The notes under the pieces: generated by a model
The model's input: only the letters and a program-made list of their open reading frames with translations
The model's database searches: none
What the model was told of the DNA's origin: nothing
Part shown: piece by piece, positions 18,084 to 58,822 of the stretch
How the letters are laid out: every line of letters begins with the position of its first letter
How positions within the stretch are numbered: the first letter of the stretch is position 1
Made by a program: the position numbers and the translations under genes
Assembly: GCA_964593885.1 (NCBI GenBank)
Contig: CAZQKK010000001.1
Coordinates: forward strand, 105,929 to 169,928
DNA from: an uncultured Candidatus Saccharibacteria bacterium
GTDB lineage: Bacteria > Patescibacteriota > UBA1384 > CAILIB01
Length of the DNA: 64,000 bases
Direction: 5' to 3'

Positions 18084-19349
18084 ATGCTCATCCACCGCGG
18101 CCTTCACACCCCAGAAAACTCACGTGTCATCTTCCTAGACATGAACTCGTTCTTTGCTAGCGTTGAGCAGCAAGATCACCCAGAGCTCCGTGGAAAACCT
18201 GTTGCCGTGGCTTCGCACATCCACAAGAACGGCACGGTGCTGGCAGCCAGCTACGAGGCCAAGGCCTTTGGCATCAAAACAGGTACCAAGCTCAATGATG
18301 CACGTCTCCTCTGCCCAGGCATCACGTTCCTAGAAACCACCCCCTACCGCTACAAAGAGGTGCACAACCAATTTGTCAGAATCCTCCAGGACATCTGCGG
18401 CCCTGAGGTGCAGGTGAGGAGTATTGATGAGGCGGCAATCTTCCTCAGCCCCAACTGGTACGGGAGCGATAACGCCCATCGCATCGCGCTTGAGATTAAA
18501 GAGAGGTTCAAGCGAGAGCTAGGAGAGTGTATTAGGTGCTCCATTGGTATCGCCCCCAATAGCCTCCTAGCAAAGCTGGCAACAGAGCTGCAAAAACCAG
18601 ATGGGTTGGTAGAGATCACCATAGAAAATACGCCAGAGATCTTGAGCAAGCTACAGCTCACAGACCTCTGCGGTATTGCAGACAGAATGGCTCGGCAATT
18701 GGAGCAAGTTGGCATCACCACCCCCCTAGAGCTCTACAACACCCCCGCCCCCATTCTCAGGAACCACTTTGGCATCTGGGGTCAGTACTGGTGGTGGAGA
18801 CTGCATGGCGTAGAGTGCGACGCCGGAGAAGGAAGTGCCCTCAAAACCATGAGCCATGAGCACGTCCTCAGTCCCTGGATATCCAAGCGCGATGCCCTAG
18901 AGGCAGTGCAGGTTAAAATGGCAGACAGGCTGCTCTACCGCCTCCAGCGCAACCACCTGCAAGCCAAGCACCTCTTCATCTGGTTTAAGCTGGTTGATGC
19001 ACCAAGCTTCTACAGAGAACGTTCCTTAGATGCCTCAACGGGAAACATCTCCATGCTCAGCAAAGCCTTCAGAGACCTCATGAGAGAGCTCCCAGAAACC
19101 TTCCCCCACCCTGTGAGAAAGGTAGTAGTTGGGCTCAACAAGCTCTCAGACATTGAGCAAGGTTTCCAGCTAGACCTCTTCTCACGCCGGCAGCGGGGCG
19201 AAGCAGTGGGCCCCATGCTTGAACTCATCCGCGACAGGTACGGTTACCAGAGCATCCAGACTGGAAGCAGCTACGCGGTGGGGAGAAACGTTGCCAAGCA
19301 GCAACTTGGTTTTGGGAGGCTCAAAGATATTGCCAACCTTGAGAAGTAG
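18084..19349 (+). CDS. dinB: DNA polymerase IV (Y-family)
   Basis: N-terminal VIFLDMNSFFASVEQ UmuC/DinB signature. 421 aa. Confidence 0.85.
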   Translation: MLIHRGLHTPENSRVIFLDMNSFFASVEQQDHPELRGKPVAVASHIHKNGTVLAASYEAKAFGIKTGTKLNDARLLCPGITFLETTPYRYKEVHNQFVRILQDICGPEVQVRSIDEAAIFLSPNWYGSDNAHRIALEIKERFKRELGECIRCSIGIAPNSLLAKLATELQKPDGLVEITIENTPEILSKLQLTDLCGIADRMARQLEQVGITTPLELYNTPAPILRNHFGIWGQYWWWRLHGVECDAGEGSALKTMSHEHVLSPWISKRDALEAVQVKMADRLLYRLQRNHLQAKHLFIWFKLVDAPSFYRERSLDASTGNISMLSKAFRDLMRELPETFPHPVRKVVVGLNKLSDIEQGFQLDLFSRRQRGEAVGPMLELIRDRYGYQSIQTGSSYAVGRNVAKQQLGFGRLKDIANLEK

Positions 19350-27408: not shown

Positions 27409-27846
27409 GTGAAAATTCTCAAGCACCCTCGAGTGAAATGGTTTGGAACATCGCTCCTACCTCTCCTCATCCTGCTTGGAATTGGGTCATGGTACACCTA
27501 CCAGGTTCTCAACTCACCACCCGAGTTTAGGTCGCTTGAAGGTTTTGGTCTGGAGAACGAGCTCCTCATCGTCACGTACACCACCCTCATTCTTGCAGCC
27601 GCAAGCTGGTGGAGCATGCTCTCGCTCTACGGCAAGCGCGCTTTCAGTAGAGAGCACATCTGGCCAAGCCTGTTTACCGTTGGTGCCTTCCTCACCCTCG
27701 CCGCAACGGTAGTTTTTGTGATGAGCATTTTGGGGTCTGATGATGACCTCTGGGTGAAGATCCTCGGCTTTGTCCTCGCTTCACTCTCTACCTTGCTCCT
27801 CACCCTCAGAGACCACCAACAGCTTACCCACGAGAGCAAAAAGTAG
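27409..27846 (+). CDS. Membrane protein (145 aa, 4 TM)
   Basis: Four hydrophobic helices; function unknown. Confidence 0.45.
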   Translation: MKILKHPRVKWFGTSLLPLLILLGIGSWYTYQVLNSPPEFRSLEGFGLENELLIVTYTTLILAAASWWSMLSLYGKRAFSREHIWPSLFTVGAFLTLAATVVFVMSILGSDDDLWVKILGFVLASLSTLLLTLRDHQQLTHESKK

Positions 27847-28475: not shown

Positions 28476-29684
28476 TTAGTATTCTTCTTCCCAGTGCTGC
28501 ACTTCGATTACACTCGGCGTACTACTCAAATTAAAGACAGAGTTGATTATCGTCGTATTAATATTCACCGCAAAGGTTGCTCCAGTGGTTATCGCCATGT
28601 TGTTTGGACAGACAAGACCTCCGTTGATAGTAACGTTCGGGACACTCGTCATCGCCACGTTACCACCACCGAAGAATACCCCGTTAATAATCCACCTCCC
28701 TCCATTGAGTGCTGTGTTTCCTCCAACAAGGATGCCACTCTCGTTATTTCCCGGATTTAACACGTTGAAAGTCAACCTACTCGCAATGGCGTTACTCACC
28801 GAAAAGTTACTGGCAAAAACTAGGATACCGGTTAGGTTAACCACTGTGTTATTTGGTACTGAGGTAAGGCTGAAGGCGCTGCTCACGTAGGTAATCGGAC
28901 CAGGTAGGGTTATCGTTCCACCGGTTTGAATGAGGTTCCTGAAAGCCGTCCCTGTGTAGGTTGCATTTGCGCTGGTCTGGTAGTAGGCAAAGTCTACCGT
29001 TGGGATGGTAAGCGAACCAGGCGGTGGCGGAACGTTGTTTGCCTGAGTTCCTCCCGAAGTAACCGTTCCACCTGTCCTTGTGTAGTTCCCTACCGCAAGG
29101 AACTTTCCCGTACCAAGGTTCATATTGGCATTTGTCAGTGTCATGTTCCCCGTTGTATAGAGATCGCTGTTTGGTATTTGTGCCGTGCTGCTTCCGTTAC
29201 TAAAACTCATGTTGAAACCACTCACAATTGAAGCGTTCCCAAGGGTGCCAGTTGTGGGAGCTGAGTAGACCTCAGCCGTAACCTTTCGTTTTGCAGTGAA
29301 AGCCCCATTATCTGCCGTAGCATCAACCGTAATGGTTCCGTATCCTGCTCCTTTTACAGCGTTTGAAAGCATTGTTACGGTAAAACCCTGTCCTGCCTGA
29401 GGAGTGTTTGTTGCGGTGTAGGTGGTATTGAGAGCTCCAGCCCTCAGGGCATCAGCCAAGGAAGTATCTGTTTTGAGCTTATTCACCGCATGCACAATTC
29501 CTGCGTCAGCAGCGTAGTACGCGGTAATACCTTCACGTTGTGAGCGCGAGATCTTCGCCTCAAGTGCCGAAATACTCACCAAGGCTCCAACTCCAAACAA
29601 ACCAACCCCCAAGAGAATGAGAATGGTTGCCAGAGCGTAGCCGGATTTCTGCCTTCGTCCCATCAGAGTTAGCATGCTTTTCAC
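28476..29684 (-). CDS. PilX-like minor pilin/pilus-tip assembly protein (402 aa)
   Basis: N-terminal class III signal-like RRQKSG/YALATILILLGVGLFG, then a T/N/G-rich beta-rich region. It is the last gene of the pilin cluster. Confidence 0.5.
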   Translation of the reverse strand: MKSMLTLMGRRQKSGYALATILILLGVGLFGVGALVSISALEAKISRSQREGITAYYAADAGIVHAVNKLKTDTSLADALRAGALNTTYTATNTPQAGQGFTVTMLSNAVKGAGYGTITVDATADNGAFTAKRKVTAEVYSAPTTGTLGNASIVSGFNMSFSNGSSTAQIPNSDLYTTGNMTLTNANMNLGTGKFLAVGNYTRTGGTVTSGGTQANNVPPPPGSLTIPTVDFAYYQTSANATYTGTAFRNLIQTGGTITLPGPITYVSSAFSLTSVPNNTVVNLTGILVFASNFSVSNAIASRLTFNVLNPGNNESGILVGGNTALNGGRWIINGVFFGGGNVAMTSVPNVTINGGLVCPNNMAITTGATFAVNINTTIINSVFNLSSTPSVIEVQHWEEEY

Positions 29685-30265
29685 TAGTTCCTCCCCTGAA
29701 CGCTAGATTGCAGTTTGAAACTCTGAATGCCACCATCAGTGGTTGTGATTACCATCTGGATTACTTCGCTCCCGTAAAAGGCAAGTGAGCTGACGTACTC
29801 AGCGATATCTTGGGTACTAACCACAGCCGAAAGCGGGGTATTTCCCGATCCATCTAGCTCGTTCCAGCGCACCCTCACACTTGGTGCAGCCGCAAAGTAG
29901 TACTCTTTAACCTGGAGCTGGAGGGTAGTGCCGTTGAGGAAATACCTACGGTAGCTGAGGTCGTTGGCGTGACCATCCTCAAACTCAATTTGACCTGGTT
30001 GGGTAACGCTGGTATCTGCAGGATTCTGAGGCAGCACCGTCACCACCTGAGGCGTTTGGCGCAGCTCCCTACTCAACCTATCTACGGTAATCCGAGCGTT
30101 CTGTGAGATGTCAGCTTTACCCTGATCCAGCGACATGGACTTCTTAACCAGTGAGTAGATTGAAACCGTCGCAGCCACCAAGATACTTGAAACCATCACC
30201 GCTACCAGAAGCTCGGTGAGGCTGAAACCAGCTTTTCGTCGTGGATAACTAACTCTGTGAGGCAT
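29684..30265 (-). CDS. Type IV minor pilin/pseudopilin
   Basis: Prepilin motif KAG/FSLTELLVAVMV (Gly-1, Glu+5). Confidence 0.6.
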   Translation of the reverse strand: MPHRVSYPRRKAGFSLTELLVAVMVSSILVAATVSIYSLVKKSMSLDQGKADISQNARITVDRLSRELRQTPQVVTVLPQNPADTSVTQPGQIEFEDGHANDLSYRRYFLNGTTLQLQVKEYYFAAAPSVRVRWNELDGSGNTPLSAVVSTQDIAEYVSSLAFYGSEVIQMVITTTDGGIQSFKLQSSVQGRN

Positions 30266-30659
30266 AGGTACTCAAGCTGTAACTTCGTGATACAGTCCCT
30301 TCGGTCCAGTAAATGGTAACGAGAATCTTTTTAATCCCAAGGTCTGAACCACTGCTGGCAAAGGTTGCGGGATTCACGTACGACACCACCACCTCACGCT
30401 CATAGGCATTGAAGGGACTACTGGTATCCGAGCTCACCACCCCACGCGCGATGTAGGTACCAGTTGTGAGAGCGGCGTACGAATCATCTTTGAGGAGCTC
30501 AAGCTGCTCCTGCGCCAGAAAGGTAGCCTGGGTAGTACTTGCCGTCTGCTTCAGGAGCTTGCGGTTAGCCGGGAAAATTTGCAGCAAACTGACCATTCCA
30601 AAAATGAAGAGGGTGAGGGCGATGAGTAGCTCTAGGAATGTGAAGCCGTGACGTTTCAC
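30249..30659 (-). CDS. Type IV minor pilin/pseudopilin
   Basis: Prepilin motif RHG/FTFLELLIALTLF. Confidence 0.6.
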   Translation of the reverse strand: MKRHGFTFLELLIALTLFIFGMVSLLQIFPANRKLLKQTASTTQATFLAQEQLELLKDDSYAALTTGTYIARGVVSSDTSSPFNAYEREVVVSYVNPATFASSGSDLGIKKILVTIYWTEGTVSRSYSLSTYASQS

Positions 30660-31132
30660 TACTGCTCCCCAGTGTTTGTTCTGATGTTCCCCGAAGGTCT
30701 CACCTCAATGGTACGGGACTTACTCCGTATCGTATCGCGAAGGGTAAAGTTCCCACTCACCGAGGGTGCGCCAGCTGTACTGAACCTGATACTGTTGTTA
30801 CCTGAAAAGCTGACGGTTCCAACTTGAATATTTGAAGGTAGCGTTAATGTCTGCATTGTTACGTTATTCCCCGATCCATCAACCTGGAACATGACAACGT
30901 TGGTTGAGCCTGCGGTAACGGTGAAGCCATACACCACCTGCTCGGTAACCGTTCGCTGGGCGGCATAGCGGATGAGATCTGAGGTTTGATCAACCGCACT
31001 GTTGAGCTGCTGCTGAGAGAGCAAGAGCTGGTAGGTTGGCACCGTAAAGGTGGCAAGAATTGCCATCAGGGCAATGCTCACCATGAGCTCAACAACGGTG
31101 AAACCCCCCTTTGCAGTAGTAAACATACCCAT
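30659..31132 (-). CDS. Type IV minor pilin/pseudopilin
   Basis: Prepilin motif KGG/FTVVELMVSIALMAIL. Confidence 0.6.
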   Translation of the reverse strand: MGMFTTAKGGFTVVELMVSIALMAILATFTVPTYQLLLSQQQLNSAVDQTSDLIRYAAQRTVTEQVVYGFTVTAGSTNVVMFQVDGSGNNVTMQTLTLPSNIQVGTVSFSGNNSIRFSTAGAPSVSGNFTLRDTIRSKSRTIEVRPSGNIRTNTGEQ

Positions 31133-31644
31133 TAGTAGTTTTGCTCTTTAGGCGTGCAGTTCACGCAGTACCCAGGCACCGTTGGTGAAGCTTCGTGGGG
31201 AACGCAGGCACCGCTGATACAGTAGAAAATGGAACTGTTCCTGACAAAATTTGGGAAGAGTACTGGGTCGCTACAGGCACTGATGGGATCACTGTTGTCA
31301 CAGAGACGGTAGCTGATTTGGTACACCTTTGCCCCGTTGATGGTCCAGTTGTCCCAGTCAAATACCCCTGTTGGCCAGGCACTCTCAGGCCATGTCCCAC
31401 CCTGGAGGTAGTGCTCCAAACCCGGAGGTACTGAACGACTCGTGTCAGCGGGGTACTGGTAGTTGTTATCCTCAGCGTACTGACTGAGCGAAGTTGCAAT
31501 CTCGGTGAGCTCAGTGGTTACGCGTGAGAGTTTAGCCTTCTGCCGTGCTTTTGCAAGGTAGAGCACCGAGAGTGTCGCCAAAATGAGTATCACAACAATG
31601 ACAATGGTGATCTCAATAATCGTGTAGCCCCTACGCTTTTGCAT
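31132..31644 (-). CDS. Type IV major pilin (PilA-like), start re-assigned to ATG 31644
   Basis: MQKRRG/YTIIEITIVIVVIL prepilin leader with Glu+5. C-terminal Cys-rich D-region CISGACVP...CVNC. It is the first gene of the cluster. Confidence 0.6.
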   Translation of the reverse strand: MQKRRGYTIIEITIVIVVILILATLSVLYLAKARQKAKLSRVTTELTEIATSLSQYAEDNNYQYPADTSRSVPPGLEHYLQGGTWPESAWPTGVFDWDNWTINGAKVYQISYRLCDNSDPISACSDPVLFPNFVRNSSIFYCISGACVPHEASPTVPGYCVNCTPKEQNY

Positions 31645-31703
31645 AGCTACAGTATAGCACCACAACGCTGGAGCGAGGAGACAAATTCTGGCATACTTGC
31701 CGT

Positions 31704-34438: not shown

Positions 34439-34984
34439 TTAGACCAAGTTAGCTTCATCTATAGCAGCAAACACGTGTCTCACCAACTGTTTGGGATCTT
34501 CGTGCATGATTACCCTCCCCATTCCTCGGTGTGCCATCTTGAGGATAACCGGGATTTCATCAATGGTGCCCCCGCTGTGGAGGAGGATGCCAATGATCAT
34601 GTGGCGCTCGAAAGCGTGGGTGAACTCGTGCAGGGTTCCCACCCTCCCACTAATCTCAATCACCGCATCGGCCATATCAATGAGGGTGATGTCCCTCCCG
34701 GCGTAGTCTTGGCCGGTAAAGAACATGGTGTCATGGTACTGCACTGGAAGGCGGTACTTCTTGGTGTGCTCTAGGAGGCTGTTAGCAGGCGAAAAGCCTA
34801 TCACCTCCCCCCTCACAGATTTTGCCCCTCGTGCCGAGGCAAGTGGAATACCCGTGGTTGCGCCGGTAAGGACAATACCTCCGTGGATGGCAATCTGTTT
34901 GCCAACCTCGTGGGCGAGAGCTTCGCCTTGCTCACCAGCCTCACCTCCTGCAGCACCTGAGATGGCAATCTTTGGGTCAAACAT
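34439..34984 (-). CDS. SLOG/LOG-like Rossmann-fold protein (TIGR00725/YgdH-like)
   Basis: 181 aa with GGIVLTGATTGIPLASARGA...GFSP...GRVGTLHEF, resembling LOG-family/TIGR00725 glycine-rich loops. High GC, unlike the upstream two genes. Confidence 0.55.
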   Translation of the reverse strand: MFDPKIAISGAAGGEAGEQGEALAHEVGKQIAIHGGIVLTGATTGIPLASARGAKSVRGEVIGFSPANSLLEHTKKYRLPVQYHDTMFFTGQDYAGRDITLIDMADAVIEISGRVGTLHEFTHAFERHMIIGILLHSGGTIDEIPVILKMAHRGMGRVIMHEDPKQLVRHVFAAIDEANLV

Positions 34985-36146
34985 TAGATGCTCGTTTAAA
35001 TGAAGTTACTACGTAGTGGATTGCCTGAATCAAGCCAGGAATGTAACGCTTAAACCTTTCATCCTCGGCTTCATCAGCTATCTCTGCTGCGTATGAGCTC
35101 AACTTATCTAGGGTGATCTGATCGATGGTATCCAACAGGTAGTGAATTGAAACCGGATTGAGGATGAGGTCAATTCTTGGGTACGACCTTAAGAACCTGT
35201 AGAGGACTTCGGTAAAGTTGTTGATATCAGTCTGCTTGAGTGCAAGGTTGTAGAGCGCCTGTGAAACCTGGTTACTTGAGATATTCTCAAGTGAAAAGCA
35301 GCTCTCAACGTCTGCATACAGCTTTTCATTGGCAGCAGCTGGCATCTCCCCAGAATTCACAAGACGAAGCGCTTCAAGTCTATCAACAAGCCGCTTACCG
35401 TACGTTATCCTCAGCTGTTCAAGGAGTAAGACTTCTGTAGGAAGTTCACCATTATTTGCAGTGATAACACCAAGTGTTGATACCACCCTGAACAGGAACA
35501 TCTGAAGCTCAAACATTCTCTCAGGCATTAGAAAATCCTGAATAGTTTCATCAGGGACAAAACTGAGGTCCTTGAGGAAAGCTTGTATTTCGGATTGCTC
35601 AACTTGGCTAATTCCCTGATCCAACTGCATCCTTTCACCTACAAGCTCCAAATGTCTCTGCGCATCTTTCTGCATTGAACGAACCTGTTCGATTTGCATG
35701 TTTTGCGACTCAATCGAAGAAAGGAGCACCTTCTCTTGGAGAAATTCTGTAGCACCAACTAACACCGTTAAGCTATGCCAGAAGTTAACCTGTCTATTTG
35801 CCCATTCAGAAATATCAGGTGGGAATGCTGGAAGATCTTCCGGGATCAGTTTTTCTTCGATGAGTTTTTTTCGTACTGAACCAGCACTGTAGAGTGCGAA
35901 GAGTGAAAGGTGGTAGAGAAAGGTACCAGCATCAATGTGAAAAAGTGCTCCAAGGTTATTTATTTTGAGGTACGACTCAATTTCAGCTGAGAAAACTGGG
36001 AGGAAGTCATTTACAACCCGAAACACAATCGCTCGCTCGTTTGGCTCTAGCGCTTTCACATACTCAATAGTATCTTCATCACTCGGTGAAGTTCTCAACC
36101 AACTCAGTATTTCTTGGCTCAGCTGTGCGAGTTCTTGATCATTCAT
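34977..36146 (-). CDS. Hypothetical cytoplasmic helical protein (389 aa), AT-rich codon usage, translationally coupled on both sides
   Basis: No TM segments; acidic, leucine-rich. Start overlaps the upstream 1286 aa gene's stop by 4 nt, and its stop overlaps the SLOG gene's start. Confidence 0.5.
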   Translation of the reverse strand: MNDQELAQLSQEILSWLRTSPSDEDTIEYVKALEPNERAIVFRVVNDFLPVFSAEIESYLKINNLGALFHIDAGTFLYHLSLFALYSAGSVRKKLIEEKLIPEDLPAFPPDISEWANRQVNFWHSLTVLVGATEFLQEKVLLSSIESQNMQIEQVRSMQKDAQRHLELVGERMQLDQGISQVEQSEIQAFLKDLSFVPDETIQDFLMPERMFELQMFLFRVVSTLGVITANNGELPTEVLLLEQLRITYGKRLVDRLEALRLVNSGEMPAAANEKLYADVESCFSLENISSNQVSQALYNLALKQTDINNFTEVLYRFLRSYPRIDLILNPVSIHYLLDTIDQITLDKLSSYAAEIADEAEDERFKRYIPGLIQAIHYVVTSFKRASNV

Positions 36147-39100
36147 GGGTTACCTCCGCCATTTTGAGCGTCTGATTGCTCGGTAACCTTAAACGCATTT
36201 GTTGGGTAATCACCAATATTATTATCAATTTTCGTACCCATACTATTGTCTCCACGATAATTTTCAGTGACAACCGTATTCCAAGCATCACGCGACGTAA
36301 ACTTTGCATCAATAATTTTTTGCAACCCCGCATCAGGACCTATAACTTTCATAAGTTGCACAGCAGCACTCTTTGTTGATTTATAGTTTGATCCTCCATC
36401 TTTAATCATTTTATGAAGGCTAAGTATCCTAGCAACGCGCTTCTGATGTTCTTTTAGTGTCTTAACGTCAGTGCTTGATGGATCTAAGACACCCTTACCA
36501 TCAATAATATCTCGGTAGACAGCGCCATTCTCAACCATTTTATCGCTAAAGGCCTCATTCACGATATCATCACGCCCAATGTATGCCTTCACGTACTGAT
36601 CTGTGCGCTTAAGGGCATTCTTGTGCTCCTCTGCCATCAAACGAATTTTGGATTCTTTCTCAGGATCGTTACCAGCCATCGCAGATATCGCTGCTTCTCC
36701 TTCAGAAGCTGCCTTAGCTGCTTTTATGTACGTATCATCAACAAGAATACGCCTGTCATAGTGTTCTTTCTGATCTTTTTCATCGTCATTTGCAATTTCT
36801 TGTCGTGCACTTGCTTGGTTGACTGTCACTTGCCTGCGTTCCGATGCCATTAGGGCTGCACCAGTCTTCATCTGCCCATCTGATGTCTTAATACCTGAGT
36901 AATTCGCAGCACGTGCTCTCGCTAACTCAGCTTTAGCAATTTGGGTTGCACTCTGCGTGTCTTTCACAAGTGCGTACTCCTTGTTGTACTTCTTCCCTTG
37001 CTTACTTTTGAAGTCTTTAGCTAGCTCTTCTTCTGCAAACGCGGTAACACCTTCTTGGACTGATTTATCAAGATCATGCTCTAGGTGGCGCATGATGTTC
37101 TTTTTCTGGCGGGCCGCATTAACCCTATTTGCCCTCTTGTTATTGATCTTCTTCATTTCCTTATCCAACTCATCTTCAATCTCCTCGATTTTTTTCTCGT
37201 ACTGAAGCTGTGTAAGCTTGTTATCTGCAAAGTCTTTCTGAGCCTTAGCCCGTGCCTCATTTGCGTGTTCTTCAGCATGTTCAGTTGCCTCAGCCTGCTT
37301 CTTTGCAGATCTAAGATTAATGCCGCTTTCAGAGGCCTTCAACTTTCCTTGGCGTTCTTCAACGTAATTTTTACCCCAGCGCTTCAGATCACCGTAGCGC
37401 GAGAGATTTTGAGCAGTCATGTACCTGTCTTTCAAATCTGCTTTCACTGCCTTGCCGGCGGCTCCTCCTGTGGCACCCCATGCCTGTTTCCCCATACCCT
37501 GCCACTTGTCCATGACCATTTTCGCTTCTCCTGAGAGTGAACCTACTGACGACTTAATTGCTGTGACCATACAGACCATCCCAAAGAGGTAGCCAAGGAT
37601 ACTTCCAAAGGCACTTTGTGCAGTTGAAGATGTTGCAGTGAAAAATTGGAAGGCAAGCCACAACCAGAAGCTTGCAATGAGAGGCATCAACAGCCAGTTG
37701 AAGAAGTTTTTTGACCACTGCTTCCAGATAAAACCAATTGGTTTTACAGCTGCTGAGAAGAACGCAAGTGCGGATAGAGGTGTTAGGAAGTAGAAGACAA
37801 TAGACCTAATCACAAAGAGAAACGCAAGAATAAATACGATTACTGCTGCTGCAATAATAAATAAGTTTAGCGTTGCCTGCTTCATTACCAGACCAGATTT
37901 CACCAAACCGGTTGCCTGATCATAGAAGAATGTAACCTTATCCGCTCCACCAATATTACTAAGGCTCTGGGCAAGTTGGTTGATATCATACCCTCCAAGT
38001 GCAAAGAATTCTGTTACATAGCTTGTCGCCTCCATCACACCTCTGATCACGAAAATACTTGCATTGGCAAGTATCAATCCAATCACTAGTTGAGGGAACA
38101 TCTTGCTAATCTGGTATGTTGATACCTGAATCTGCAAGATGTTTGAAAGTGCAATAAAAATAAAGAAGAGAAGGAGAATAAAGTTTACTAGCGTTAAAAT
38201 GAGCGAGTGAGTCTTGCTAATTATTTTTCCTACATCATTTGTTGTTGATCCGATGATACTTTCTGGCGGTGTTCGTATTTCAACAGGAACAAGAAAATCA
38301 AACATACTATCACTTGATTCATCCGTTGAGGGTACTCTTCCACTAAACCCAGCTGTTTGAGCAAGCATATTGAGCGATGACCTAAGGAGGTATTCTGAAA
38401 ATTCTTGAACAGCAATACTCACTACACACAGAATCTGCATAAACCCATTAGCCGTTAAAAAACCTGGCGACTGCTCATTTCCACATCTGTCAGCAGATTG
38501 CAACCTCCCGGAAAGAGCATTCATTTTTTTTGCAACTTCGCCATTTAAAAACTGTGCAACATTCTTACCGACACCGATAACTTGATTAACTGTATTAACT
38601 TCGGCGGTTGCAAACATCTGATCCTTACTGATCTCTGGGTCAAGTACTTCACTTGCAGCAGTTCTAATAACACCATTACCCCCACTTGAGAGCAGACTTT
38701 CCCGTATTGGGTTTGCTTGACCTTTTGTTGTCGCAAGGAGCATCGCCGATTCAGCCATCATCCAATACGCCTGTGATAGTGGTTTCAAATTGGTTGAGTA
38801 CGTATTGTAAACGTTCGCTCCACTCAACTGAATTTCATTTTTTGCAAATGAAACGAGAGCACTTGTTCCGGCACCAAGAACAGCAAAAGTGCCAAATGCT
38901 TGAAGAGCAATTGGTGCAGCAATAGATAGCGCCAACCAAATTCCACTTAAGCTAGCCCCTCCTGTAAAGACTGCAAGCAGTACTGACCCAATAATGATTA
39001 TTCCCGCTGCCACCGCACCTGCAATCAATCCCGCTTGAGCTGCATCACGGGCTGCATCTACCATCATTTCATAACTAATCATTCTACTCCCAAGGTACAC

Positions 39101-40003
39101 CTTCGACCCAAGCTTCTCGTAAAGCGGGTTTACAGGAGTACCATCTTCTTTTACTACTTCCGGCCCAGGAGTAAGTAGAAACTTCGCAGCAAGAACAACT
39201 GCTTGAAATGCAGCATTGTAGAGCATTTGAGAAGCAGCAAAGGACTCCTCCATGCATTTTTTTGCTTCTTCTTTTGTGAAGCCTTCAGTTGCAAGATCAA
39301 AGGTTGACCAGTCATAACTTGCTTTTCCTTTGCTAGCACCTAAGAGCTGATCATACTTAGCCTGTATCGGATATTTTTTTCCCCCTTCAACTGGCACTCT
39401 TACCGTTACTTCTGTTTCCTCACGATCATGTTTTAACGTGATTGTTTTATTCTCGTACTCACACGGAACTGGATCAACATTCCCAGAAGTACCTATCTGC
39501 TTTTTTAGGTTTTCATTGATAGTGTAAGGTATAGAATTTGCGTTTGCTGCAGCTTGATTTATCTCAATGCACTGATTTGAGGAATTTGGAAAATCAGGCG
39601 TTGCGTTGGCATACGTTGGGTTATTATTCCTCTTACAAAAGAGAATCTTATCCTCAAGTACCCAGCTCAATTTTGAGACGTAAAGCTTTGGATCTGTATT
39701 CTGTACGCCAGCATCTTTAAAGGCTTGATCGCCGTAGTCTTTTAGCGGACCTGTCCCCCGATAATTATTACGAAATGCAATGCATAATGGAGTATTTGCT
39801 TCTTCGCTTCTGGGATTTTCAGTACCTACCTCACAAAACGAGGTAGCGCTAGCTTTTGACCACGCCCACTCATTTGAAGCAGCCTTCGCACGCTGCACAA
39901 AGCCATCTAAATCTGTAAGGTTGAGGATAAGAAAATTGGAAACAAAAAATGCGAGTAGAAGTACCCCTAGCTTCTTTGCGTATTTCCTCATATGTACCAT
40001 CAT
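36143..40003 (-). CDS. Giant polytopic membrane protein (1286 aa): signal-anchor, Cys-containing extracytoplasmic domain, about 10 TM helices in three clusters, about 450 aa K/E/A-rich coiled-coil tail. VirB6/TrbL-like topology, but no homology established
   Basis: Uninterrupted 3.86 kb ORF at about 40% GC. Hydrophobic clusters at residues about 330-390, 590-640 and 690-800. C-terminal tail of heptad-like charged repeats. Confidence 0.6.
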   Translation of the reverse strand: MMVHMRKYAKKLGVLLLAFFVSNFLILNLTDLDGFVQRAKAASNEWAWSKASATSFCEVGTENPRSEEANTPLCIAFRNNYRGTGPLKDYGDQAFKDAGVQNTDPKLYVSKLSWVLEDKILFCKRNNNPTYANATPDFPNSSNQCIEINQAAANANSIPYTINENLKKQIGTSGNVDPVPCEYENKTITLKHDREETEVTVRVPVEGGKKYPIQAKYDQLLGASKGKASYDWSTFDLATEGFTKEEAKKCMEESFAASQMLYNAAFQAVVLAAKFLLTPGPEVVKEDGTPVNPLYEKLGSKVYLGSRMISYEMMVDAARDAAQAGLIAGAVAAGIIIIGSVLLAVFTGGASLSGIWLALSIAAPIALQAFGTFAVLGAGTSALVSFAKNEIQLSGANVYNTYSTNLKPLSQAYWMMAESAMLLATTKGQANPIRESLLSSGGNGVIRTAASEVLDPEISKDQMFATAEVNTVNQVIGVGKNVAQFLNGEVAKKMNALSGRLQSADRCGNEQSPGFLTANGFMQILCVVSIAVQEFSEYLLRSSLNMLAQTAGFSGRVPSTDESSDSMFDFLVPVEIRTPPESIIGSTTNDVGKIISKTHSLILTLVNFILLLFFIFIALSNILQIQVSTYQISKMFPQLVIGLILANASIFVIRGVMEATSYVTEFFALGGYDINQLAQSLSNIGGADKVTFFYDQATGLVKSGLVMKQATLNLFIIAAAVIVFILAFLFVIRSIVFYFLTPLSALAFFSAAVKPIGFIWKQWSKNFFNWLLMPLIASFWLWLAFQFFTATSSTAQSAFGSILGYLFGMVCMVTAIKSSVGSLSGEAKMVMDKWQGMGKQAWGATGGAAGKAVKADLKDRYMTAQNLSRYGDLKRWGKNYVEERQGKLKASESGINLRSAKKQAEATEHAEEHANEARAKAQKDFADNKLTQLQYEKKIEEIEDELDKEMKKINNKRANRVNAARQKKNIMRHLEHDLDKSVQEGVTAFAEEELAKDFKSKQGKKYNKEYALVKDTQSATQIAKAELARARAANYSGIKTSDGQMKTGAALMASERRQVTVNQASARQEIANDDEKDQKEHYDRRILVDDTYIKAAKAASEGEAAISAMAGNDPEKESKIRLMAEEHKNALKRTDQYVKAYIGRDDIVNEAFSDKMVENGAVYRDIIDGKGVLDPSSTDVKTLKEHQKRVARILSLHKMIKDGGSNYKSTKSAAVQLMKVIGPDAGLQKIIDAKFTSRDAWNTVVTENYRGDNSMGTKIDNNIGDYPTNAFKVTEQSDAQNGGGNP

Positions 40004-40036: not shown

Positions 40037-40630
40037 CTACGATCCAATCCACTTCGGCGTCAGGCTATCCCGTTTCACACGTAGTTCAGCTGCTTTTTCT
40101 CGGTACGAAGCATCAAACTCAGCTAGATTGTCGTAGGTAAGCGCTAGGTAGTGGAGGGCTTCGGGGTAGTTGGCATCAAGCGAGAGAGCCCTCTCAAATG
40201 GATACCGAGCGTAGACGTACTCACCCGCCAGGAAAAAGGAGATGCCTGAGGCAACTGCTTCTTTTGGTGTTGCAAAGTTTTCGGTGGAGGCATCAATTTT
40301 GGCCACAATATCTTCTCTGTTGTGGGAAACCAGGTAGTTTCGAAGCTCTGCAATGTCTGTTTCGCCAGACTTTGCTAGCTTAAGCTGGCTTTCAGCATCA
40401 CGGTTTTCTGGGTTGAGGTTGAGAGCGCGTGTAAAGGTAGCTGAGGCATCGCTAAACTTGAGAGCTGCAAGCTGCTCGGATCCCTTCACCGTGTACCTGG
40501 TACTCATCACGTGCTGCACAGGAGAGACTGCCTGCCAGAGCACGAGTGCTAGGAGCGATAACCCAAGGAAAATGGTGGCGCAGGATCGCTTTCCGGAAAA
40601 CCTGACAGCTCCCGCTACTTGCCTGGCCAC
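40037..40630 (-). CDS. Membrane-anchored TPR-repeat protein
   Basis: N-terminal TM CATIFLGLSLLALVLW followed by TPR-like helical repeats (ALNLNPENRDAESQLKLA, ALSLDANYPEALHYLALTY). Confidence 0.55.
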   Translation of the reverse strand: MARQVAGAVRFSGKRSCATIFLGLSLLALVLWQAVSPVQHVMSTRYTVKGSEQLAALKFSDASATFTRALNLNPENRDAESQLKLAKSGETDIAELRNYLVSHNREDIVAKIDASTENFATPKEAVASGISFFLAGEYVYARYPFERALSLDANYPEALHYLALTYDNLAEFDASYREKAAELRVKRDSLTPKWIGS

Positions 40631-42840
40631 GGCGCTACAATCAGCATGGTTTCTCGCTCTGGGAGGCGCTGCCAGATGGCCTCAGTAACAAAAGGCATGA
40701 ATGGGTGGAGCATCTTGAGGCTTGATTCCAGGACATGGAAGAGGATGGAGCAGGTTGTGGCATCTACTTGTCCATTGTCATCCTTCTGAGACTTTGCCGC
40801 CTCAACGTAGACGTCGGCAAACTGGTGCCAGGTGAACTCGTGGAGGGCCTGGAGTGCTTGGGCAAACCGGTAGTTGTCCAAGTGCTCAGTAGCTTCGGAA
40901 GTTGCTTCGGCAAGTTTCGTGAGGATGTCACGGTCGGCATCGGTGAGGGTGGCGGTAGAGCCTTCGCCCAGGTCAACTGACACCATGTTGTTAGCATCCT
41001 CTGAGAAACTCACCACCGGCAGCTCGCTCACAGCTCGCTCTCCCAACTGCATAAGGACAAATCGGCTAATGTTCCACAGTTTGTTGGCAAAATTCCTCCC
41101 CCCAATGATCTTTTCCTCAGGCATAGGGATGTCAGAGCCAGCCGAAGATCCTACCAGCAAGCCAAACCTCACGGCGTCAGCGCCGTACTTAGCAACCAAA
41201 TCTACCGGGGAAACTACGTTCCCTTTGCTCTTTGACATCTTCTTCCCCTGCTTGTCCAAAACCATGCCGTGGAAGTAGACGTGCTTGAAGGGAACATCGC
41301 CACGGAGGTAGATGCCCATCATCAGCATGCGGGTTACCCAGGAGAAAATGAGGTCGCGACCCGTTTCCATAACTGTCGTTGGGTAGAAGTCATCAAGCCA
41401 GTCATTTCCCATAGCTTCCAGAACCGCCACCGGCCACTGGGAAGATGAGAACCAGGTGTCAAAGGTGTCTAGATCTTTGGCAATGTCTGGATTCTCTGGC
41501 ATTGCGGCATTGATAGGAATACCCCACCAAATCTGGCGGCTAATGTTCCAATCCCTGAGGTTTCGTAGCCAGTCAAGCTGAATTTTCTTGAAGCTCTCAG
41601 GGTGGTACTCTACCTTGCCAGCCTCAATAGCTTTGATAACCGGTTCTACGAGAGGTTCAACTTTCACGTACCACTGCGGCATGACGAGGGGCTCAATGGG
41701 TTGCATGGACTTGTAGCAGAGGGCAACCGAGTGCTTGTAGGTGGTGTCCACCTTTTCTAAGAGCCCTAGTTCTTCTAGGCGAGCCGCAATCAACTTTCTA
41801 GCTTCGGCAGCTTTTATCCCAGCAAACTCTCCTGCGATAGGAAGCAGTTTTCCGTCTAGCCCAATAATTGGAATGATTGGAAGGTTGTGTCGCTGGGCAA
41901 TCTCAAAGTCTATCGAGTCATGCGCCGGGGTGATGGTCATGGCACCGGTGCCAAACTCAGGCTTGATAGCGTCATCGGCAATCACGTGCATCTGTACCAT
42001 TTCACCAGTCGCAATCTGTACCTCAAAACTCTGGCCAATATACTGCTTGTACCTCTCGTCTTCTGGGTGCACCACAATGTGCTTGTCCCCAAACTTGGTT
42101 TCAGGCCTTACCGTGGCGATGGTGATTGGGCCGTACTTGATGTAGTAGAGGGGGTCCTGCCGCTCTTCGTGGACCAGCTCAATATCTGAGTAGGCTGTCC
42201 GGTACTTTACCGAGTAGTTTACAATCCTCTCACCCCTATAAATGAGCCCTTCCTCGTACATACTCCTGAAAGTTGTGTAGACACGATCAAGTACCGCATC
42301 GTCGAGGGTGAAGCGGTTGGCCTTCCAGTCAACGCTGGTTCCCATCATCTTAATCTGAGCCTCAATGTTCCCCTTGTTGCTCAGGGTGAATTCCATTGCC
42401 TCCTTGTAGAACTGCTCGCGTGTCATCTGGAAACGTGAGCGGCCCTCTTTTTCCAGGTGCTTTTCAAACACCACTTGCGTCTCGAGGCCAGCGTGGTCGG
42501 TGCCGGGAATCATTACCGTACGAAACCCCTTCATTCGGTGGTACCTCACCATGATGTCTTCAAGGGTGAAGGTGAGCGCATGCCCCATGTGCAGATTGCC
42601 GTTGGCGTTGGCGGGAGGCGTTACCAGGGAGAAATGGGTGTCTTTGGTATCTTCTGAGGTTTTGGCTCTCGGCGAAAAGGCGCCCATGGTTTCCCAGGCA
42701 GTGTAGGTAGGTGTTTCGTGCTCCCCGGCAACGTAGGCTTTGGGGAAGGTTTCTTCGGTGAGTTGCATACCTGGAAGTGTAGCTGATTTCTCACCTGTTT
42801 GCGAGTGATTACCAGAGGCAACCACTAACAAAACCTGCAC
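40615..42840 (-). CDS. valS: Valyl-tRNA synthetase (short form, 741 aa)
   Basis: PPANANGNLHMGHA HIGH-region, GTDHAGLETQ, KMSKSKGNVV. ValRS-type motifs. No C-terminal coiled-coil extension. Confidence 0.8.
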   Translation of the reverse strand: MQVLLVVASGNHSQTGEKSATLPGMQLTEETFPKAYVAGEHETPTYTAWETMGAFSPRAKTSEDTKDTHFSLVTPPANANGNLHMGHALTFTLEDIMVRYHRMKGFRTVMIPGTDHAGLETQVVFEKHLEKEGRSRFQMTREQFYKEAMEFTLSNKGNIEAQIKMMGTSVDWKANRFTLDDAVLDRVYTTFRSMYEEGLIYRGERIVNYSVKYRTAYSDIELVHEERQDPLYYIKYGPITIATVRPETKFGDKHIVVHPEDERYKQYIGQSFEVQIATGEMVQMHVIADDAIKPEFGTGAMTITPAHDSIDFEIAQRHNLPIIPIIGLDGKLLPIAGEFAGIKAAEARKLIAARLEELGLLEKVDTTYKHSVALCYKSMQPIEPLVMPQWYVKVEPLVEPVIKAIEAGKVEYHPESFKKIQLDWLRNLRDWNISRQIWWGIPINAAMPENPDIAKDLDTFDTWFSSSQWPVAVLEAMGNDWLDDFYPTTVMETGRDLIFSWVTRMLMMGIYLRGDVPFKHVYFHGMVLDKQGKKMSKSKGNVVSPVDLVAKYGADAVRFGLLVGSSAGSDIPMPEEKIIGGRNFANKLWNISRFVLMQLGERAVSELPVVSFSEDANNMVSVDLGEGSTATLTDADRDILTKLAEATSEATEHLDNYRFAQALQALHEFTWHQFADVYVEAAKSQKDDNGQVDATTCSILFHVLESSLKMLHPFMPFVTEAIWQRLPERETMLIVAPWPGK

Positions 42841-55381: not shown

Positions 55382-55792
55382 ATGCCTCTCAAGACGGTTA
55401 TCTCGGGGAGCTTCCACCGTCACCCTGAAAAACTCTGGAGCATCTACCAAGAGCTCACCCTTGCCGGCTGCCAGGTACTATCACCATTCACACTTTCCTT
55501 CCAATCTCCTGATGATGATTTTGTGGTGGGCAAGGGAGAAAGCTGGCTCACCCCTCTAGAAATAGAGAAGCACCACCTCACCGCCATTTCCCATGCAGAC
55601 TTTGTCTGGCTCCACGTACCAGATGGGTACATTGGCAAGAGCACAGCGCTAGAGATTGGTTACGCGGTAGCAAAGGGTATCCCGCTCTTTTCGCACACAC
55701 TACCCACCGAGGAACCTTTCAGGTCTTTTGTTAGTACGTACACATCAGTATATTGTGCCCTACAAGAGAACAACCTCATCACAAACACCTAG
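55382..55792 (+). CDS. Nucleoside 2-deoxyribosyltransferase-like protein
   Basis: FVWLHVPDGYIGKSTALEIGYAVAKGIPLF resembles the NDT-family C-terminal catalytic Glu region. Start 2 bp after the Nudix gene stop. Confidence 0.5.
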   Translation: MPLKTVISGSFHRHPEKLWSIYQELTLAGCQVLSPFTLSFQSPDDDFVVGKGESWLTPLEIEKHHLTAISHADFVWLHVPDGYIGKSTALEIGYAVAKGIPLFSHTLPTEEPFRSFVSTYTSVYCALQENNLITNT

Positions 55793-58077
55793 TCAGCCGT
55801 TATTCTCTGGCGTCTGATATTTAGATACTGAAATCCCCAGAACATACCGAGAAGTAACAGGGTCCCCGTTACCAGTGTTACAGGTGGGATAGGAGTCCCA
55901 GTTTGAGCTAAACCACCCGATGCACTATCAGTTGGCGATGCAGTTGCCTGTAATACAGGTGTGGCAAATGCACCCAAAGTGGTCACCGTAGCTTGCGTAG
56001 GCCAAGCTCCGTCGGTCACCACAACTCGGTACTCGTACGCTGTACCAACCGTTAAGTTTGTTTGCACGATAGCGGATCCTGGCGTAATAGACCCTTGTGA
56101 TGTCCACGCCTCACTCCCTACCCGTCTCTGCAGCTGGTAGGATAGTGTACCGTAACCTCCAGTAGCTGGCGTAGTAAGAATAGAGACACTACCTGATCCA
56201 ACTGTAGGATCTACGGTAACTGACCCAGCTGCTAGCGGCACGTACGAATAGCGATCTGCAATAAATTTCGCGTGAAACTTTCCAAGTATTGTAGCTGCTG
56301 GAGTTGAAGGGTGCACAAAATCAGCAAAGTATTCGTAGAAATGATTTCCCGACCAACTAGACGCATCATTAGTAGCAACAAGAATATTCGTCCCATTTGA
56401 CTTTGTTTGGAGGTAATCCCAAATGGTATCCAGATTATTTTGCACTGTAACACTGCTAATCCTCACAGGCGGAAGTTGAAGAAAAACCTGGAATCCATCG
56501 GTAGTGAGACTACTCAATACCCCATCAACATACCCTCGCCATGTAACATCCGTGCCAGCGTAGGAAGAAGCATCATTAGTGCCAAGTTGGAGGGAAATGA
56601 CATTCGAGCCAGCCGCCTGTAAAGCATCAACCAAACCGTGGTAGAGGTTTTTGCTGGCATTAAGTGGGGAGGCATTACAGTTTGTGCAAGCACCAGGTGA
56701 TAGAGGTGCTGAGGGAAGCCAATCTTCAAATTTCCTGCCCGGCATCGCTCCCGACAGGTACGTAACACTTGTCCCACTAACAGTACTCAAACTATCCACA
56801 ATTGATTGACGAAATGTAGAGATACTGTGGTAGAGCGAGTCCCCCGCAAGTCCAACTACTACTGGGCCTCCGTTGGTAATGTAGTATGAGTTACTCGAGA
56901 ATGTTGGTACTGCACTCTCTGGTACCGCAGCAACTCCAACAGATGGGGAAATAACCCCACTGTTATCGTAATTTACCGAAACAAAATCGCTTCCGTCAGA
57001 CCCAACTATTCTCCAACTATAGTAGTGTATTGCTGTAACACTTGGCGTAACCACAACTGATACTTCCCCAGCACCTGTCCTGCCAGTAGATCCTCGAGAA
57101 ACCCCCGCTGAGATTGGTGTGTCATGCTCGAAAAGCGTCGCCGTATAGCTTGTTGTAGGCAATCCTCCTTTTATCTCCGTACGAATCGGAATTGTCGTGG
57201 TGGTTGCTAAACTAGCGTCAGCTTCTGAGGGTGCTCCATCAAGGAAATAACGGTAGCTACCACCGTTGTAGATTATGTCGTACTGCTGCTGTGTCAGCTT
57301 ATTATTTCTACTGAAACCAAGCTCATGCAGGTCATAGTCTGCACCAGTCGTAAGGTTAGTTTTTGAACATGCTGAAATAATGCCGCCAGGCGAAGCAGCA
57401 AAATCAAACCCACTATCAACTGCTGATACCTGTGCTGTGCCGTTCACCCAAATGGTCAGCTCCCCCGCTGTCTTGTTGTATGCCACACCCACTAGGTACT
57501 CAAGCCCATCGGTGAGGGAAACCATTACTGATTGATCAAGCGTGTCTACGCCATCTGAGAGGATAAATTGAACCCTATCTGCGTAGAAATATACTTCTAA
57601 ATCCGAACCCCAAGAGAATACTTTTTGAGAACTTCCACCATAGACAGCATGGAACGTGGTGAGCGCGTACAAGCTAAACTCACTCACCGAGTGGGTAACT
57701 GTTGCCGCCGTGCTCAAACAGGTACCATCGGAAAACAGCATTTCAGCTGCATTCCTGCTACCACCAAAGTAGGAAGAAGTAACCGGCACGGTTCCGCTTC
57801 CTCCTGTTGGGATAAGTGAGTATGTTGGACCATCCACACTTCCCAGTCTTGTTCCCGAAGCTTCATTGAAACCGTAGACTTCAGTGAGATGAGGTACACC
57901 ATTCACCATGCTGCCACCCGCGCCGCTCACCTGGGTTCTGCTGTACCAAGAGTCGCTACTTGCCTGCACTGGCAGAGCTACGGTCTGCAAAGCTAAGGCC
58001 AGTACCATAAGAAATACCACAGCAATGCGTGATGCCTTGGGGTAACCTCGCCCGACTGTTACGCTACTCGAATCCAT
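55789..58077 (-). CDS. Sortase-anchored surface protein (762 aa) with GDSL/SGNH-like and lectin-like regions and C-terminal LAQTG sorting signal
   Basis: C-terminus ...GGLAQTG-TPIPPVTLVTGTLLLLGMFWGFQYL-NIRRQRITAD (motif, hydrophobic helix, basic tail). LAQTG encoded at 55897-55911. LQLGTNDASS GDSL-like block. Confidence 0.65.
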   Translation of the reverse strand: MDSSSVTVGRGYPKASRIAVVFLMVLALALQTVALPVQASSDSWYSRTQVSGAGGSMVNGVPHLTEVYGFNEASGTRLGSVDGPTYSLIPTGGSGTVPVTSSYFGGSRNAAEMLFSDGTCLSTAATVTHSVSEFSLYALTTFHAVYGGSSQKVFSWGSDLEVYFYADRVQFILSDGVDTLDQSVMVSLTDGLEYLVGVAYNKTAGELTIWVNGTAQVSAVDSGFDFAASPGGIISACSKTNLTTGADYDLHELGFSRNNKLTQQQYDIIYNGGSYRYFLDGAPSEADASLATTTTIPIRTEIKGGLPTTSYTATLFEHDTPISAGVSRGSTGRTGAGEVSVVVTPSVTAIHYYSWRIVGSDGSDFVSVNYDNSGVISPSVGVAAVPESAVPTFSSNSYYITNGGPVVVGLAGDSLYHSISTFRQSIVDSLSTVSGTSVTYLSGAMPGRKFEDWLPSAPLSPGACTNCNASPLNASKNLYHGLVDALQAAGSNVISLQLGTNDASSYAGTDVTWRGYVDGVLSSLTTDGFQVFLQLPPVRISSVTVQNNLDTIWDYLQTKSNGTNILVATNDASSWSGNHFYEYFADFVHPSTPAATILGKFHAKFIADRYSYVPLAAGSVTVDPTVGSGSVSILTTPATGGYGTLSYQLQRRVGSEAWTSQGSITPGSAIVQTNLTVGTAYEYRVVVTDGAWPTQATVTTLGAFATPVLQATASPTDSASGGLAQTGTPIPPVTLVTGTLLLLGMFWGFQYLNIRRQRITAD

Positions 58078-58787: not shown

Positions 58788-58822
58788 GCCTTATTCTACC
58801 ATACGTAACTGGTTAACTTGGG

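Follow-up and report, generated by a model that had tools for sequence, protein, structure and literature searches.

The question raised by this locus is what a large membrane protein of a Saccharibacteria bacterium does at a housekeeping site of the chromosome, and why whole parts of it differ between genomes that are otherwise nearly identical. The protein, of 1286 amino acids (aa), is encoded at 36143..40003 on the reverse strand of the 64-kb stretch of DNA analysed here, which we refer to as the window, and its gene is followed by that of a 389-aa partner protein. An initial annotation of the sequence had pointed out a resemblance to VirB6/TrbL-type channel subunits of type IV secretion systems (T4SS). 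We propose that the protein is an extended VirB6 subunit of a T4SS from the candidate phyla radiation (CPR) that carries exchangeable specificity modules. For this full mechanistic statement we estimate a probability of about 0.6; that the core of the protein is a VirB6/TrbL homologue is, taken by itself, very probable. The occurrence of VirB6 homologues in CPR genomes is already known and the basic identity of the protein is not new. In the literature searched we did not find described an N-terminally extended subfamily at a fixed locus apart from T4SS genes, a strictly paired partner family, or shuffling of the head against the tail and its partner.

Related loci or genomes are designated below by L-numbers and homologous proteins by P-numbers. 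The features of the locus, with the evidence on which each delineation is based, are as follows.

36143..40003, reverse strand: whole gene of the 1286-aa extended VirB6/TrbL-like protein (open reading frame (ORF), homology searches, AlphaFold2 (AF2) model and Foldseek)
39914..40003, reverse strand: aa 1-30, basic N-terminus and signal anchor, left edge of the variable region (Kyte-Doolittle hydropathy, codon comparison with L001)
39047..39913, reverse strand: aa 31-319, hydrophilic, allele-specific head with six conserved Cys, presumably extracytoplasmic (Cys positions, hydropathy, allele comparison)
38264..39046, reverse strand: aa 320-580, extra hydrophobic cluster (320-387), loop, and weak hydrophobic segment (514-533) with Cys507/Cys526 (hydropathy)
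37463..38263, reverse strand: aa 581-847, conserved five-helix VirB6/TrbL-like core (HMMER family, alignments A1-A3, AF2, profile and fold match to TrwI, dN/dS)
37463..37492, reverse strand: aa 838-847, GKQAWGATGG, family-wide motif (consensus GKxAWGxTGG) and head/tail recombination junction (A3 consensus, positions in four alleles)
36146..37462, reverse strand: aa 848-1286, basic, charged, allele-specific tail (type A), probably helical, predicted cytoplasmic (composition, periodicity, allele comparison)
34977..36146, reverse strand: 389-aa acidic, all-helical partner without transmembrane (TM) segment, co-segregating with the tail type (hydropathy, AF2, allele comparison)
34977..40003, both genes, no strand assigned: compositional island comprising exactly the VirB6-like gene and the partner gene (GC 0.42-0.44 and GC at third codon positions (GC3) 0.31-0.44, versus 0.51-0.55 and 0.47-0.65 in the flanks)
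40037..40630, reverse strand: 197-aa membrane-anchored TPR protein, conserved upstream neighbour (Pfam TPR_1/TPR_11/TPR_17)

Identity of the membrane core

The VirB6-like gene is a single ATG-started ORF, as the initial annotation had called it. It is unbroken in every genome examined, neither split nor pseudogenised, and we consider it a real gene because it is unbroken and syntenic in at least seven genomes besides this one and strong purifying selection acts on its core (dN/dS about 0.01). Kyte-Doolittle hydropathy places a signal anchor at about aa 8-33, preceded by the basic stretch MRKYAKK, and hydrophobic clusters at aa 320-387 (two to three helices), 514-533 (one weak helix), 594-659 (two) and 704-820 (three), which gives 8-10 hydrophobic helices in total and agrees with the polytopic protein described before. 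The soluble domain of about 300 aa with at least six Cys that had been read behind the anchor corresponds to the head (289 aa), which contains exactly six Cys at positions 57, 74, 123, 145, 181 and 250. All six are kept in P0002, the closest homologue with 71% identity. Searches of Pfam and the PDB returned no relative of the head.

The evidence for the identity of the core comes mainly from its relatives. A word-indexed homologue search with the full protein found three proteins only; candidates matching its low-complexity tail may have crowded out the rest. When aa 1-870 were used in an exhaustive HMMER search, 1253 relatives were returned, 261 of them at E<1e-10, which have a module at about aa 580-860 in common. 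The only distant match of the word-indexed search, P0003, aligns with aa 600-777 of the window protein at a database-wide E of 1.4e-6, scores above the gathering threshold of Pfam TrbL (27.9 versus 25.9 bits), and is encoded between four T4SS pilin genes on one side and genes for PrgI, a TraC-like protein, VirB4, an M23 peptidase and lysozyme on the other. Among 47 homologues scanned, TrbL (PF04610) matches 11 (best E 5.4e-7) and TrbL_4 (PF19597) three, the sole match outside these two families being one weak TFIIS_M; P0007, with synteny identical to that of the window, has a precomputed match to TrbL_3 (PF19590). Within the full-length alignment of 47 sequences (A2), the core residues Y630, K634, R733, W763 and W770 are invariant. 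Transitively and at the level of profiles, these sequence comparisons argue for homology to TrbL/VirB6.

Structure prediction leads to the same family. A profile of 40 core sequences (A3) has its best PDB match in TrwI, the VirB6 protein of plasmid R388, with profile positions 131-265 matched to TrwI 128-268 at an E of 0.012 that is marginal by itself. The AF2 model of aa 570-870 has a predicted local distance difference test score (pLDDT) of 88 and a predicted template modelling score (pTM) of 0.77, and contains long helices at 590-623, 629-669, 703-740, 754-792 and 798-821, followed by an amphipathic helix at 826-869. When this model was compared by Foldseek with 350,000 PDB chains, the top five matches were chains of R388 entries for the T4SS stalk and inner-membrane complex, the top four being full-length matches to chains of TrwI length (probability 0.99-1.0, TM-score 0.42-0.51, 271-280 aligned columns). 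A VirB6 fold calls for a bundle of long hydrophobic helices, five or six in number, that can be superposed on a solved VirB6, and the model agrees with this. Together with P0003, the TrbL matches and the 13 loci linked to VirB3 and VirB4 described below, these results bear out the resemblance to VirB6/TrbL that the topology had suggested, and the recommended structure prediction with a Foldseek search pointed to VirB6 as well.

The N-terminal TM helix, large ectodomain and C-terminal TM bundle would also recall YhgE/Pip or EsaA, a likeness that is confined to superficial architecture. Neither family matched the window protein in Pfam or NCBIfam at E<=1 or appeared among the 47 homologues, and the top folds were all VirB6. 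With an intact ORF and a dN/dS of 0.01 in addition, membership in these families, as well as a decaying pseudogene or a mis-called ORF, is effectively excluded.

An orphan locus and the canonical secretion clusters

Scanning species-representative genomes with the core alignment yielded 21 loci, all in Patescibacteria (Saccharibacteria, Berkelbacteria, WS2 and unclassified lineages). As all relatives found belong to this group, the setting in an episymbiotic bacterium with a reduced genome, assumed from the outset, appears correct. In 13 of the 21 loci (L007, L010-L020, L022), genes for PrgI/VirB3-like, TraC-like and VirB4 proteins are located 3-8 kb downstream of the core gene. The order in these canonical clusters is BacA, TPR, a signal-anchored protein of about 500-660 aa, the VirB6-like protein, in some clusters only a protein of about 145 aa, an acidic protein of about 380-545 aa, PrgI/VirB3-like, TraC-like and VirB4, and L007, L010-L012, L014-L016 and L020 carry a TPR homologue upstream of the VirB6-like gene. 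Because these 13 loci show a conserved VirB4-linked cluster, one widespread type of CPR T4SS cluster has its VirB6 component in the window family. Judged from gene content, joint encoding with VirB4 and VirB3 applies to the family and, over the 64 kb analysed, not to the window gene.

Two further proteins of the canonical clusters are conserved and unannotated, namely the signal-anchored protein about 2 kb upstream of the VirB6-like gene and the acidic protein 0.5-3 kb downstream of it (net charge -19 to -43, no TM segment). Neither had a Pfam match in the L007 cluster, which was scanned, and the same holds for the downstream protein of L018. Three genes for 23S_rRNA_IVP/bAvd-like four-helix bundles are interspersed in the T4SS cluster of L007, a Saccharibacteria locus, at 7646-8050, 14137-14487 and 18252-18614; Avd-like proteins are otherwise tied to diversity-generating retroelements. 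A second type of CPR T4SS cluster (L003, L030) adjoins recF-dnaN-dnaA; it contains four to six T4SS pilin genes in tandem, and its VirB6 is of the TrbL_3 type. In L030 this is a 442-aa VirB6 gene between separate genes of 334 and 502 aa, and in L003 a single VirB6 gene of 874 aa. The TrbL_3-type VirB6 of this oriC-proximal cluster type is distantly related to the window family (E about 1e-6).

The window protein belongs to an N-extended sub-lineage (P0002, P0004-P0043) in which the core begins at about residue 300-600. Conservation within this subfamily extends from about aa 490 onward, and the best-matched stretches of the top matches begin at about aa 475-540. Its members occupy a fixed site between valS-TPR and a SLOG gene, in the order rpsT, polA, murE, femAB, valS, TPR, VirB6-like, a partner of about 380-413 aa, SLOG, L,D-transpeptidase, trxB, type IV pilins, ruvA, rpoD and dnaG. 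The full order of this orphan site is present in L001/L002, L026, L028 and L029, and truncated versions of it in L004, L023, L024, L025 and L027. All genes from valS to the one for the L,D-transpeptidase run in one direction, none overlapping or standing apart from the next by more than 33 nt. Upstream of the VirB6-like gene, L001, L004, L024-L026, L028 and L029 likewise encode a TPR homologue. The block of TPR, VirB6-like protein and acidic partner without TM segment mirrors the front half of the canonical cluster, and the N-terminal extension occupies the position of the separate secreted protein.

This arrangement bears on whether the protein still works with a T4SS. The core keeps the invariant residues of the family under very strong purifying selection, like its T4SS-linked relatives, and TPR, VirB6-like and acidic proteins follow each other as in the canonical front half; moreover, we know of no VirB6 homologue that acts without VirB4. 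It is therefore doubtful that the protein is VirB6-derived but no longer coupled to a T4SS and forms, with the TPR protein and the partner, a stand-alone envelope complex such as a surface anchor, adhesin or channel. In favor of such a complex, the neighbourhood is a stable housekeeping one away from any VirB4 in about nine genomes, and the N-terminus has grown in this subfamily by about 560 residues, further hydrophobic helices among them. Among 480 VirB6 homologues of CPR genomes, 304 lie near virB4 and the other 176 do not (Quinonero-Coronel et al. 2025, bioRxiv 10.1101/2025.01.22.634366).

Several observations concern the genes directly beside the cassette. The SLOG cluster-4 (LOG-like) gene at 34439-34984 on the reverse strand follows the partner gene in every orphan-type locus with downstream sequence (57-98% identity); its product has a weak PsyrA-like match in PADLOC (E 2e-4) and may be functionally linked to the cassette. 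The TPR gene overlaps the 3' end of valS by 16 nt. For valS itself (40615-42840, reverse strand), a GTG start and 741 aa are listed; because relatives have gene calls of 711-745 aa, with 717 aa in L001, translation probably begins further downstream.

Exchange of head, tail and partner

Flanking DNA is 80-88% identical to L001 on both sides, whereas positions 34988-37461 of the window, which comprise the partner gene and the tail from residue 848, are without any nucleotide similarity. The similarity to L001 ends at 37461, that is, at the junction motif. At the protein level, the flanks share 78-100% identity with L001 (most at least 86%), the ectodomain 77%, the middle region 64% and the core 95%. 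In the comparison with L026, most flanking proteins are 63-98% identical, the core is 48% identical, and similarity of ectodomain and middle region is undetectable; tail and partner have no detectable similarity to those of either genome. With 26% identity to the ectodomain of L025, and none detectable to that of L026, the Cys-rich ectodomain is not general to the family and represents one of several unrelated interchangeable heads. The window tail has no similarity to the tails of L001, L025, L026, L028 and L029 and is 55% identical to that of L027. The partner of L027 is likewise 58% identical to the window partner, and the head and core of L027 group with L026. Between L001 and L026, the tails are 54% and the partners 73% identical.

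Scored in four genomes by head type (H, ectodomain and core) and tail type (T), the combinations are H1+TA in the window, H1+TB in L001, H2+TB in L026 and H2+TA in L027. Because all four combinations are present (a four-gamete pattern), the modules of ectodomain plus core and of tail plus partner recombine independently. Each tail type is always paired with its partner type, amid flanking genes of 85-98% identity, and the SLOG protein is 87-98% identical throughout this comparison. A diversity-generating retroelement is unlikely to be the cause, as whole domains are replaced and not A-specific sites in a short region; no reverse transcriptase was found among the window ORFs scanned against Pfam.

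Base composition and codon comparison add to this picture. When the window is compared with L001, the head has diverged more at synonymous sites than the genes beside it have; the fraction of identical codons is 0.28-0.51 in the head and 0.58-0.66 in the flanks. It reaches 0.88 in the first 30 codons, where dS is 0.23 and as low as or lower than in flanking genes. Together with the GC3 island, the synonymous divergence points to allele replacement from a diverged pool, not to mere relaxed constraint. We considered whether every cassette has such a GC3 dip and rejected this: the dip is strong in the window, the head of L001 and L025, and absent in L026, L028 and L029. Frequent allele replacement and the raised synonymous divergence of the head point to diversifying selection from host-bacteria interaction. 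Swapping of the head and of the tail with its partner between near-identical genomes is as expected for a host-interaction or specificity determinant.

Tail and partner, the two exchanged parts predicted to be cytoplasmic, have little in common with known proteins. In the tail (aa 851-1286), 33% of the residues are charged; it contains K 12.4%, A 12.4%, E 8.3%, D 8.0% and Q 5%, has a net charge of +8 and includes no hydrophobic segment. The initial annotation had described about 450 residues rich in K, E, A and Q with a heptad-like pattern. A charged, K- and A-rich tail of about 440 aa was indeed found; Q is not prominent and heptads occur only in patches. A hydrophobic periodicity of 3.5 residues with z>=3 is confined to scanning windows that start at aa 935 (z 3.8), 1131, 1187 and 1215 (z 3.0-4.3), which corresponds to heptad-positive stretches at about aa 935-990 and from about aa 1131 to the C-terminus, the latter richer in G and P; other scanning windows have z from -0.7 to 2.0. 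Because the periodicity is patchy, the tail is not one long coiled coil of 450 residues; it is probably a charged helical domain, with a block at about aa 950-1100 that is conserved within a tail type and probably structured. Neither a relative nor a toxin or enzyme domain was found for the tail in Pfam, NCBIfam, PHROGs, PADLOC or PDB sequence searches.

The partner gene starts with a 4-nt overlap on the stop of the VirB6-like gene. Its product is acidic (net charge -23) with a maximal 19-residue Kyte-Doolittle hydropathy of 1.4 and no TM segment, in accordance with the cytoplasmic protein of 389 aa that had been predicted. It has no match in Pfam, NCBIfam, PHROGs, PADLOC or PDB sequence searches. 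The AF2 model (pLDDT 71) is all-helical and gives only generic TPR- or alpha-solenoid-like Foldseek matches (probability <0.2, TM-score <0.2). Partners of seven genomes align end to end with conserved positions and are only 17-24% identical between types; they form one fast-evolving family, of which four members are detectable by sequence in the database. For the window protein and the partner together, searches of Pfam, NCBIfam, PHROGs and PADLOC gave only sub-threshold noise (DUF7018, FlaG, NlpC/P60, NusB-like, E>0.03). About 560 N-terminal and about 440 C-terminal residues as well as the 389-aa partner are consequently without annotation in any library searched.

In the mechanism that we propose, the core would oligomerise, like the TrwI/VirB6 pentamer of R388, into a membrane platform or stalk base on a VirB4 ATPase encoded elsewhere in the genome. 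The Cys-rich head would be displayed outside the cell as an exchangeable surface or host-contact module, in a position that VirB5 takes on top of VirB6 in Gram-negative systems and for which the canonical CPR cluster encodes a separate secreted protein. The basic tail would be cytoplasmic and bind its cognate acidic partner, and the two would make up a cytoplasmic module, likewise exchangeable, that is itself cargo or else recruits or gates it. Applied to the sequence with its hydrophobic segments and the helices of the model, the positive-inside rule predicts the N-terminus and the K-rich tail inside and the Cys-rich head outside, with the reservation that in the R388 structure the "TM" helices of VirB6 may largely lie outside the membrane (PMC12857230).

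Several points weigh against our proposal. The window protein itself has no TrbL/VirB6 match in Pfam-A or NCBIfam (hmmscan, E<=1), and the profile searches that had been recommended recognised TrbL in 11 of the 47 homologues and not directly in the window protein, with no signal for YhgE/Pip or EsaA. The TrwI profile match at E 0.012 is tied with TM helices of the flavivirus M protein, the Foldseek E-values of the core model are weak (0.03-0.09), and the VirB6 assignment rests on the agreement of several weak-to-moderate lines. In the 64-kb window, no VirB4, PrgI/VirB3 or TraC-like gene was found by tblastn with CPR queries or by Pfam on 24 window ORFs, mostly those that could not be named from sequence. 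Of the earlier statement that no VirB4, VirD4 or relaxase gene is nearby, the part on VirB4 was confirmed for the window; VirD4 and relaxase are absent from the 24 scanned ORFs, with some ORFs unscanned and no queries directed at either. By hmmsearch and hhalign, no homology was detectable between the N-terminal extension and the upstream protein of about 600 aa, of which it might have been a fused copy, or between the partner and the canonical acidic downstream protein; the best hhalign P was 0.023 over 51 columns, and only position and physico-chemical character agree. Given a second cluster type with its own VirB6, the window protein could be an extra paralogue and not the VirB6 of the system. 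Finally, we infer tail-partner binding, oligomerisation and topology.

A conserved junction, a variable C-terminus and a co-varying next gene are the gene logic of CdiA-CT/CdiI and Rhs systems, and this logic applies to the window locus, where the variable region begins right after GKxAWGxTGG and is followed by a variable gene that strictly co-segregates with it. A polymorphic effector/immunity-like or effector/chaperone system on a VirB6 scaffold, in which the head directs trafficking, the tail is released or else delivered to the host bacterium and the partner neutralises or escorts it, would also agree with the basic tail, the acidic partner and the probably structured block at about aa 950-1100. 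The sequence criteria would lead one to expect, in addition, a recognisable toxin domain and a partner of an immunity family, and no toxin or enzyme domain was seen in the tail in the searches listed above. Typical toxin/immunity pairs are much smaller than tail and partner, the tail, predicted to be cytoplasmic, is part of a polytopic membrane protein without an evident cleavage site, and the presence of acidic partner-like proteins downstream in canonical clusters suggests a structural or accessory role. We regard such a system as improbable. Similarly, we give little credence to the more far-reaching idea of a modular specificity device in or derived from an essential T4SS, in which the exchangeable head picks the host surface, the exchangeable cytoplasmic tail is cargo, toxin or self-recognition determinant with a strictly cognate partner to neutralise or escort it, and arms races between host and parasite keep the diversity. 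If true, VirB6 would here be the scaffold of a compatibility system or of a polymorphic effector/immunity-like one.

TraG/Eex is a precedent for cytoplasmic specificity determinants, and an extended VirB6-like architecture with discrete, co-segregating tail and partner types might by analogy suggest a self/non-self or entry-exclusion-like recognition pair, as TraG-TraS of F or TraG-Eex of SXT/R391. Both TraS and Eex belong to the inner membrane and are small; the partner, which lacks a TM segment, does not appear by its sequence to be such a protein. Whole tails of 440-600 aa are replaced instead of a few specificity residues, and according to the literature CPR T4SS clusters are mostly without relaxase, so there is no evidence of conjugation. 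An exclusion function is very unlikely.

We return to the extended VirB6 subunit with exchangeable modules and what it would imply. There is at least one lineage in which no gene of an otherwise conserved stretch of chromosome varies as much as that of the VirB6 subunit. With the ectodomain we have a concrete candidate for what determines host range, and the pair of tail and partner may serve to recruit substrates, deliver effectors or set compatibility.

More distant parts of the window contain further variable or surface-related genes. An operon of five type IV pilin-like genes with N_methyl/PilX_N signatures (28476-31665, reverse strand) includes a PilX-like protein of 402 aa that evolves much faster than its neighbours (dN 0.149 versus 0.01-0.08, relative to L001). 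A second small variable gene at 27409-27846 on the forward strand encodes a membrane-anchored protein of 145 aa, 93% identical in L001 and 28% in L026, beside ruvA and rpoD with 91-98% identity. In the region 55789-61942 on the reverse strand, a sortase gene (58077-58787) is located between genes for a 762-aa protein without Pfam match and a 1039-aa right-handed beta-helix protein, which are probably sortase-anchored surface proteins. Counts from a promoter and terminator scan were not above those of shuffled sequence.

Relation to known systems

The CdiA-CT/CdiI and Rhs-CT/RhsI systems resemble the window locus as functional analogues only, with a conserved N-terminal part, a junction motif, a hypervariable C-terminus and a co-varying downstream gene. 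They differ from it in that there is no homology and no recognisable toxin or immunity domain, the window tail is predicted to be cytoplasmic on a polytopic protein, and tail and partner are unusually large. The analogy to TraG-Eex and TraG-TraS is likewise functional: an extended VirB6-like protein has a variable region that is matched allele-specifically by a second protein. However, Eex and TraS are small membrane proteins in the recipient and the window partner is a soluble acidic protein of 389 aa encoded in cis; in addition, whole domains and not few residues are replaced at the window locus.

TrwI of R388 (PDB 7O3V, 8RT9, 8RTD), a bundle of long hydrophobic helices, is the best PDB match of the window core by both profile and fold. 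The identity is only 14-17%, and TrwI has 342 aa without a large ectodomain or tail, whereas the window protein is longer by about 560 residues at the N-terminus and about 440 at the C-terminus, and its gene does not lie beside VirB4. TrwI moreover works in a diderm with VirB5 on top, and the window protein comes from a monoderm-type CPR cell. The VirB6 proteins of Patescibacteria T4SS belong to the same phylum and superfamily as the window protein. Southlakia epibionticum ML1 requires its T4SS (cluster SEML1_0006-0019) to grow as an epibiont (Wang et al. 2023, PMC10633639). In contrast to these VirB6 proteins, the window gene lies outside a VirB4 cluster, at valS-TPR ... SLOG, and encodes an N-extended protein that is a recombining mosaic with a co-varying partner.

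The Rickettsiales RvhB6 paralogues, the N-terminal domain of TraG of the F plasmid and TcpH of Clostridium perfringens pCW3 are examples of extended VirB6 proteins, for which modular allele shuffling has to our knowledge not been reported. Like them, the window protein has at least five hydrophobic helices and large hydrophilic domains; with 8-10 predicted helices, an ectodomain of 289 aa and a tail of 439 aa it falls within this class. Between its extra domains and those of the named examples no homology was detectable (no Pfam matches). The class goes back to a definition by Alvarez-Martinez and Christie 2009 (cited in PMC12857230) and is known for large hydrophilic domains with extra parts of unknown function (PMC12857230). 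Unlike the named examples, the window protein combines an N-terminal ectodomain with a C-terminal tail, and our result suggests what the extra domains of extended VirB6 proteins, so far unexplained, may be for.

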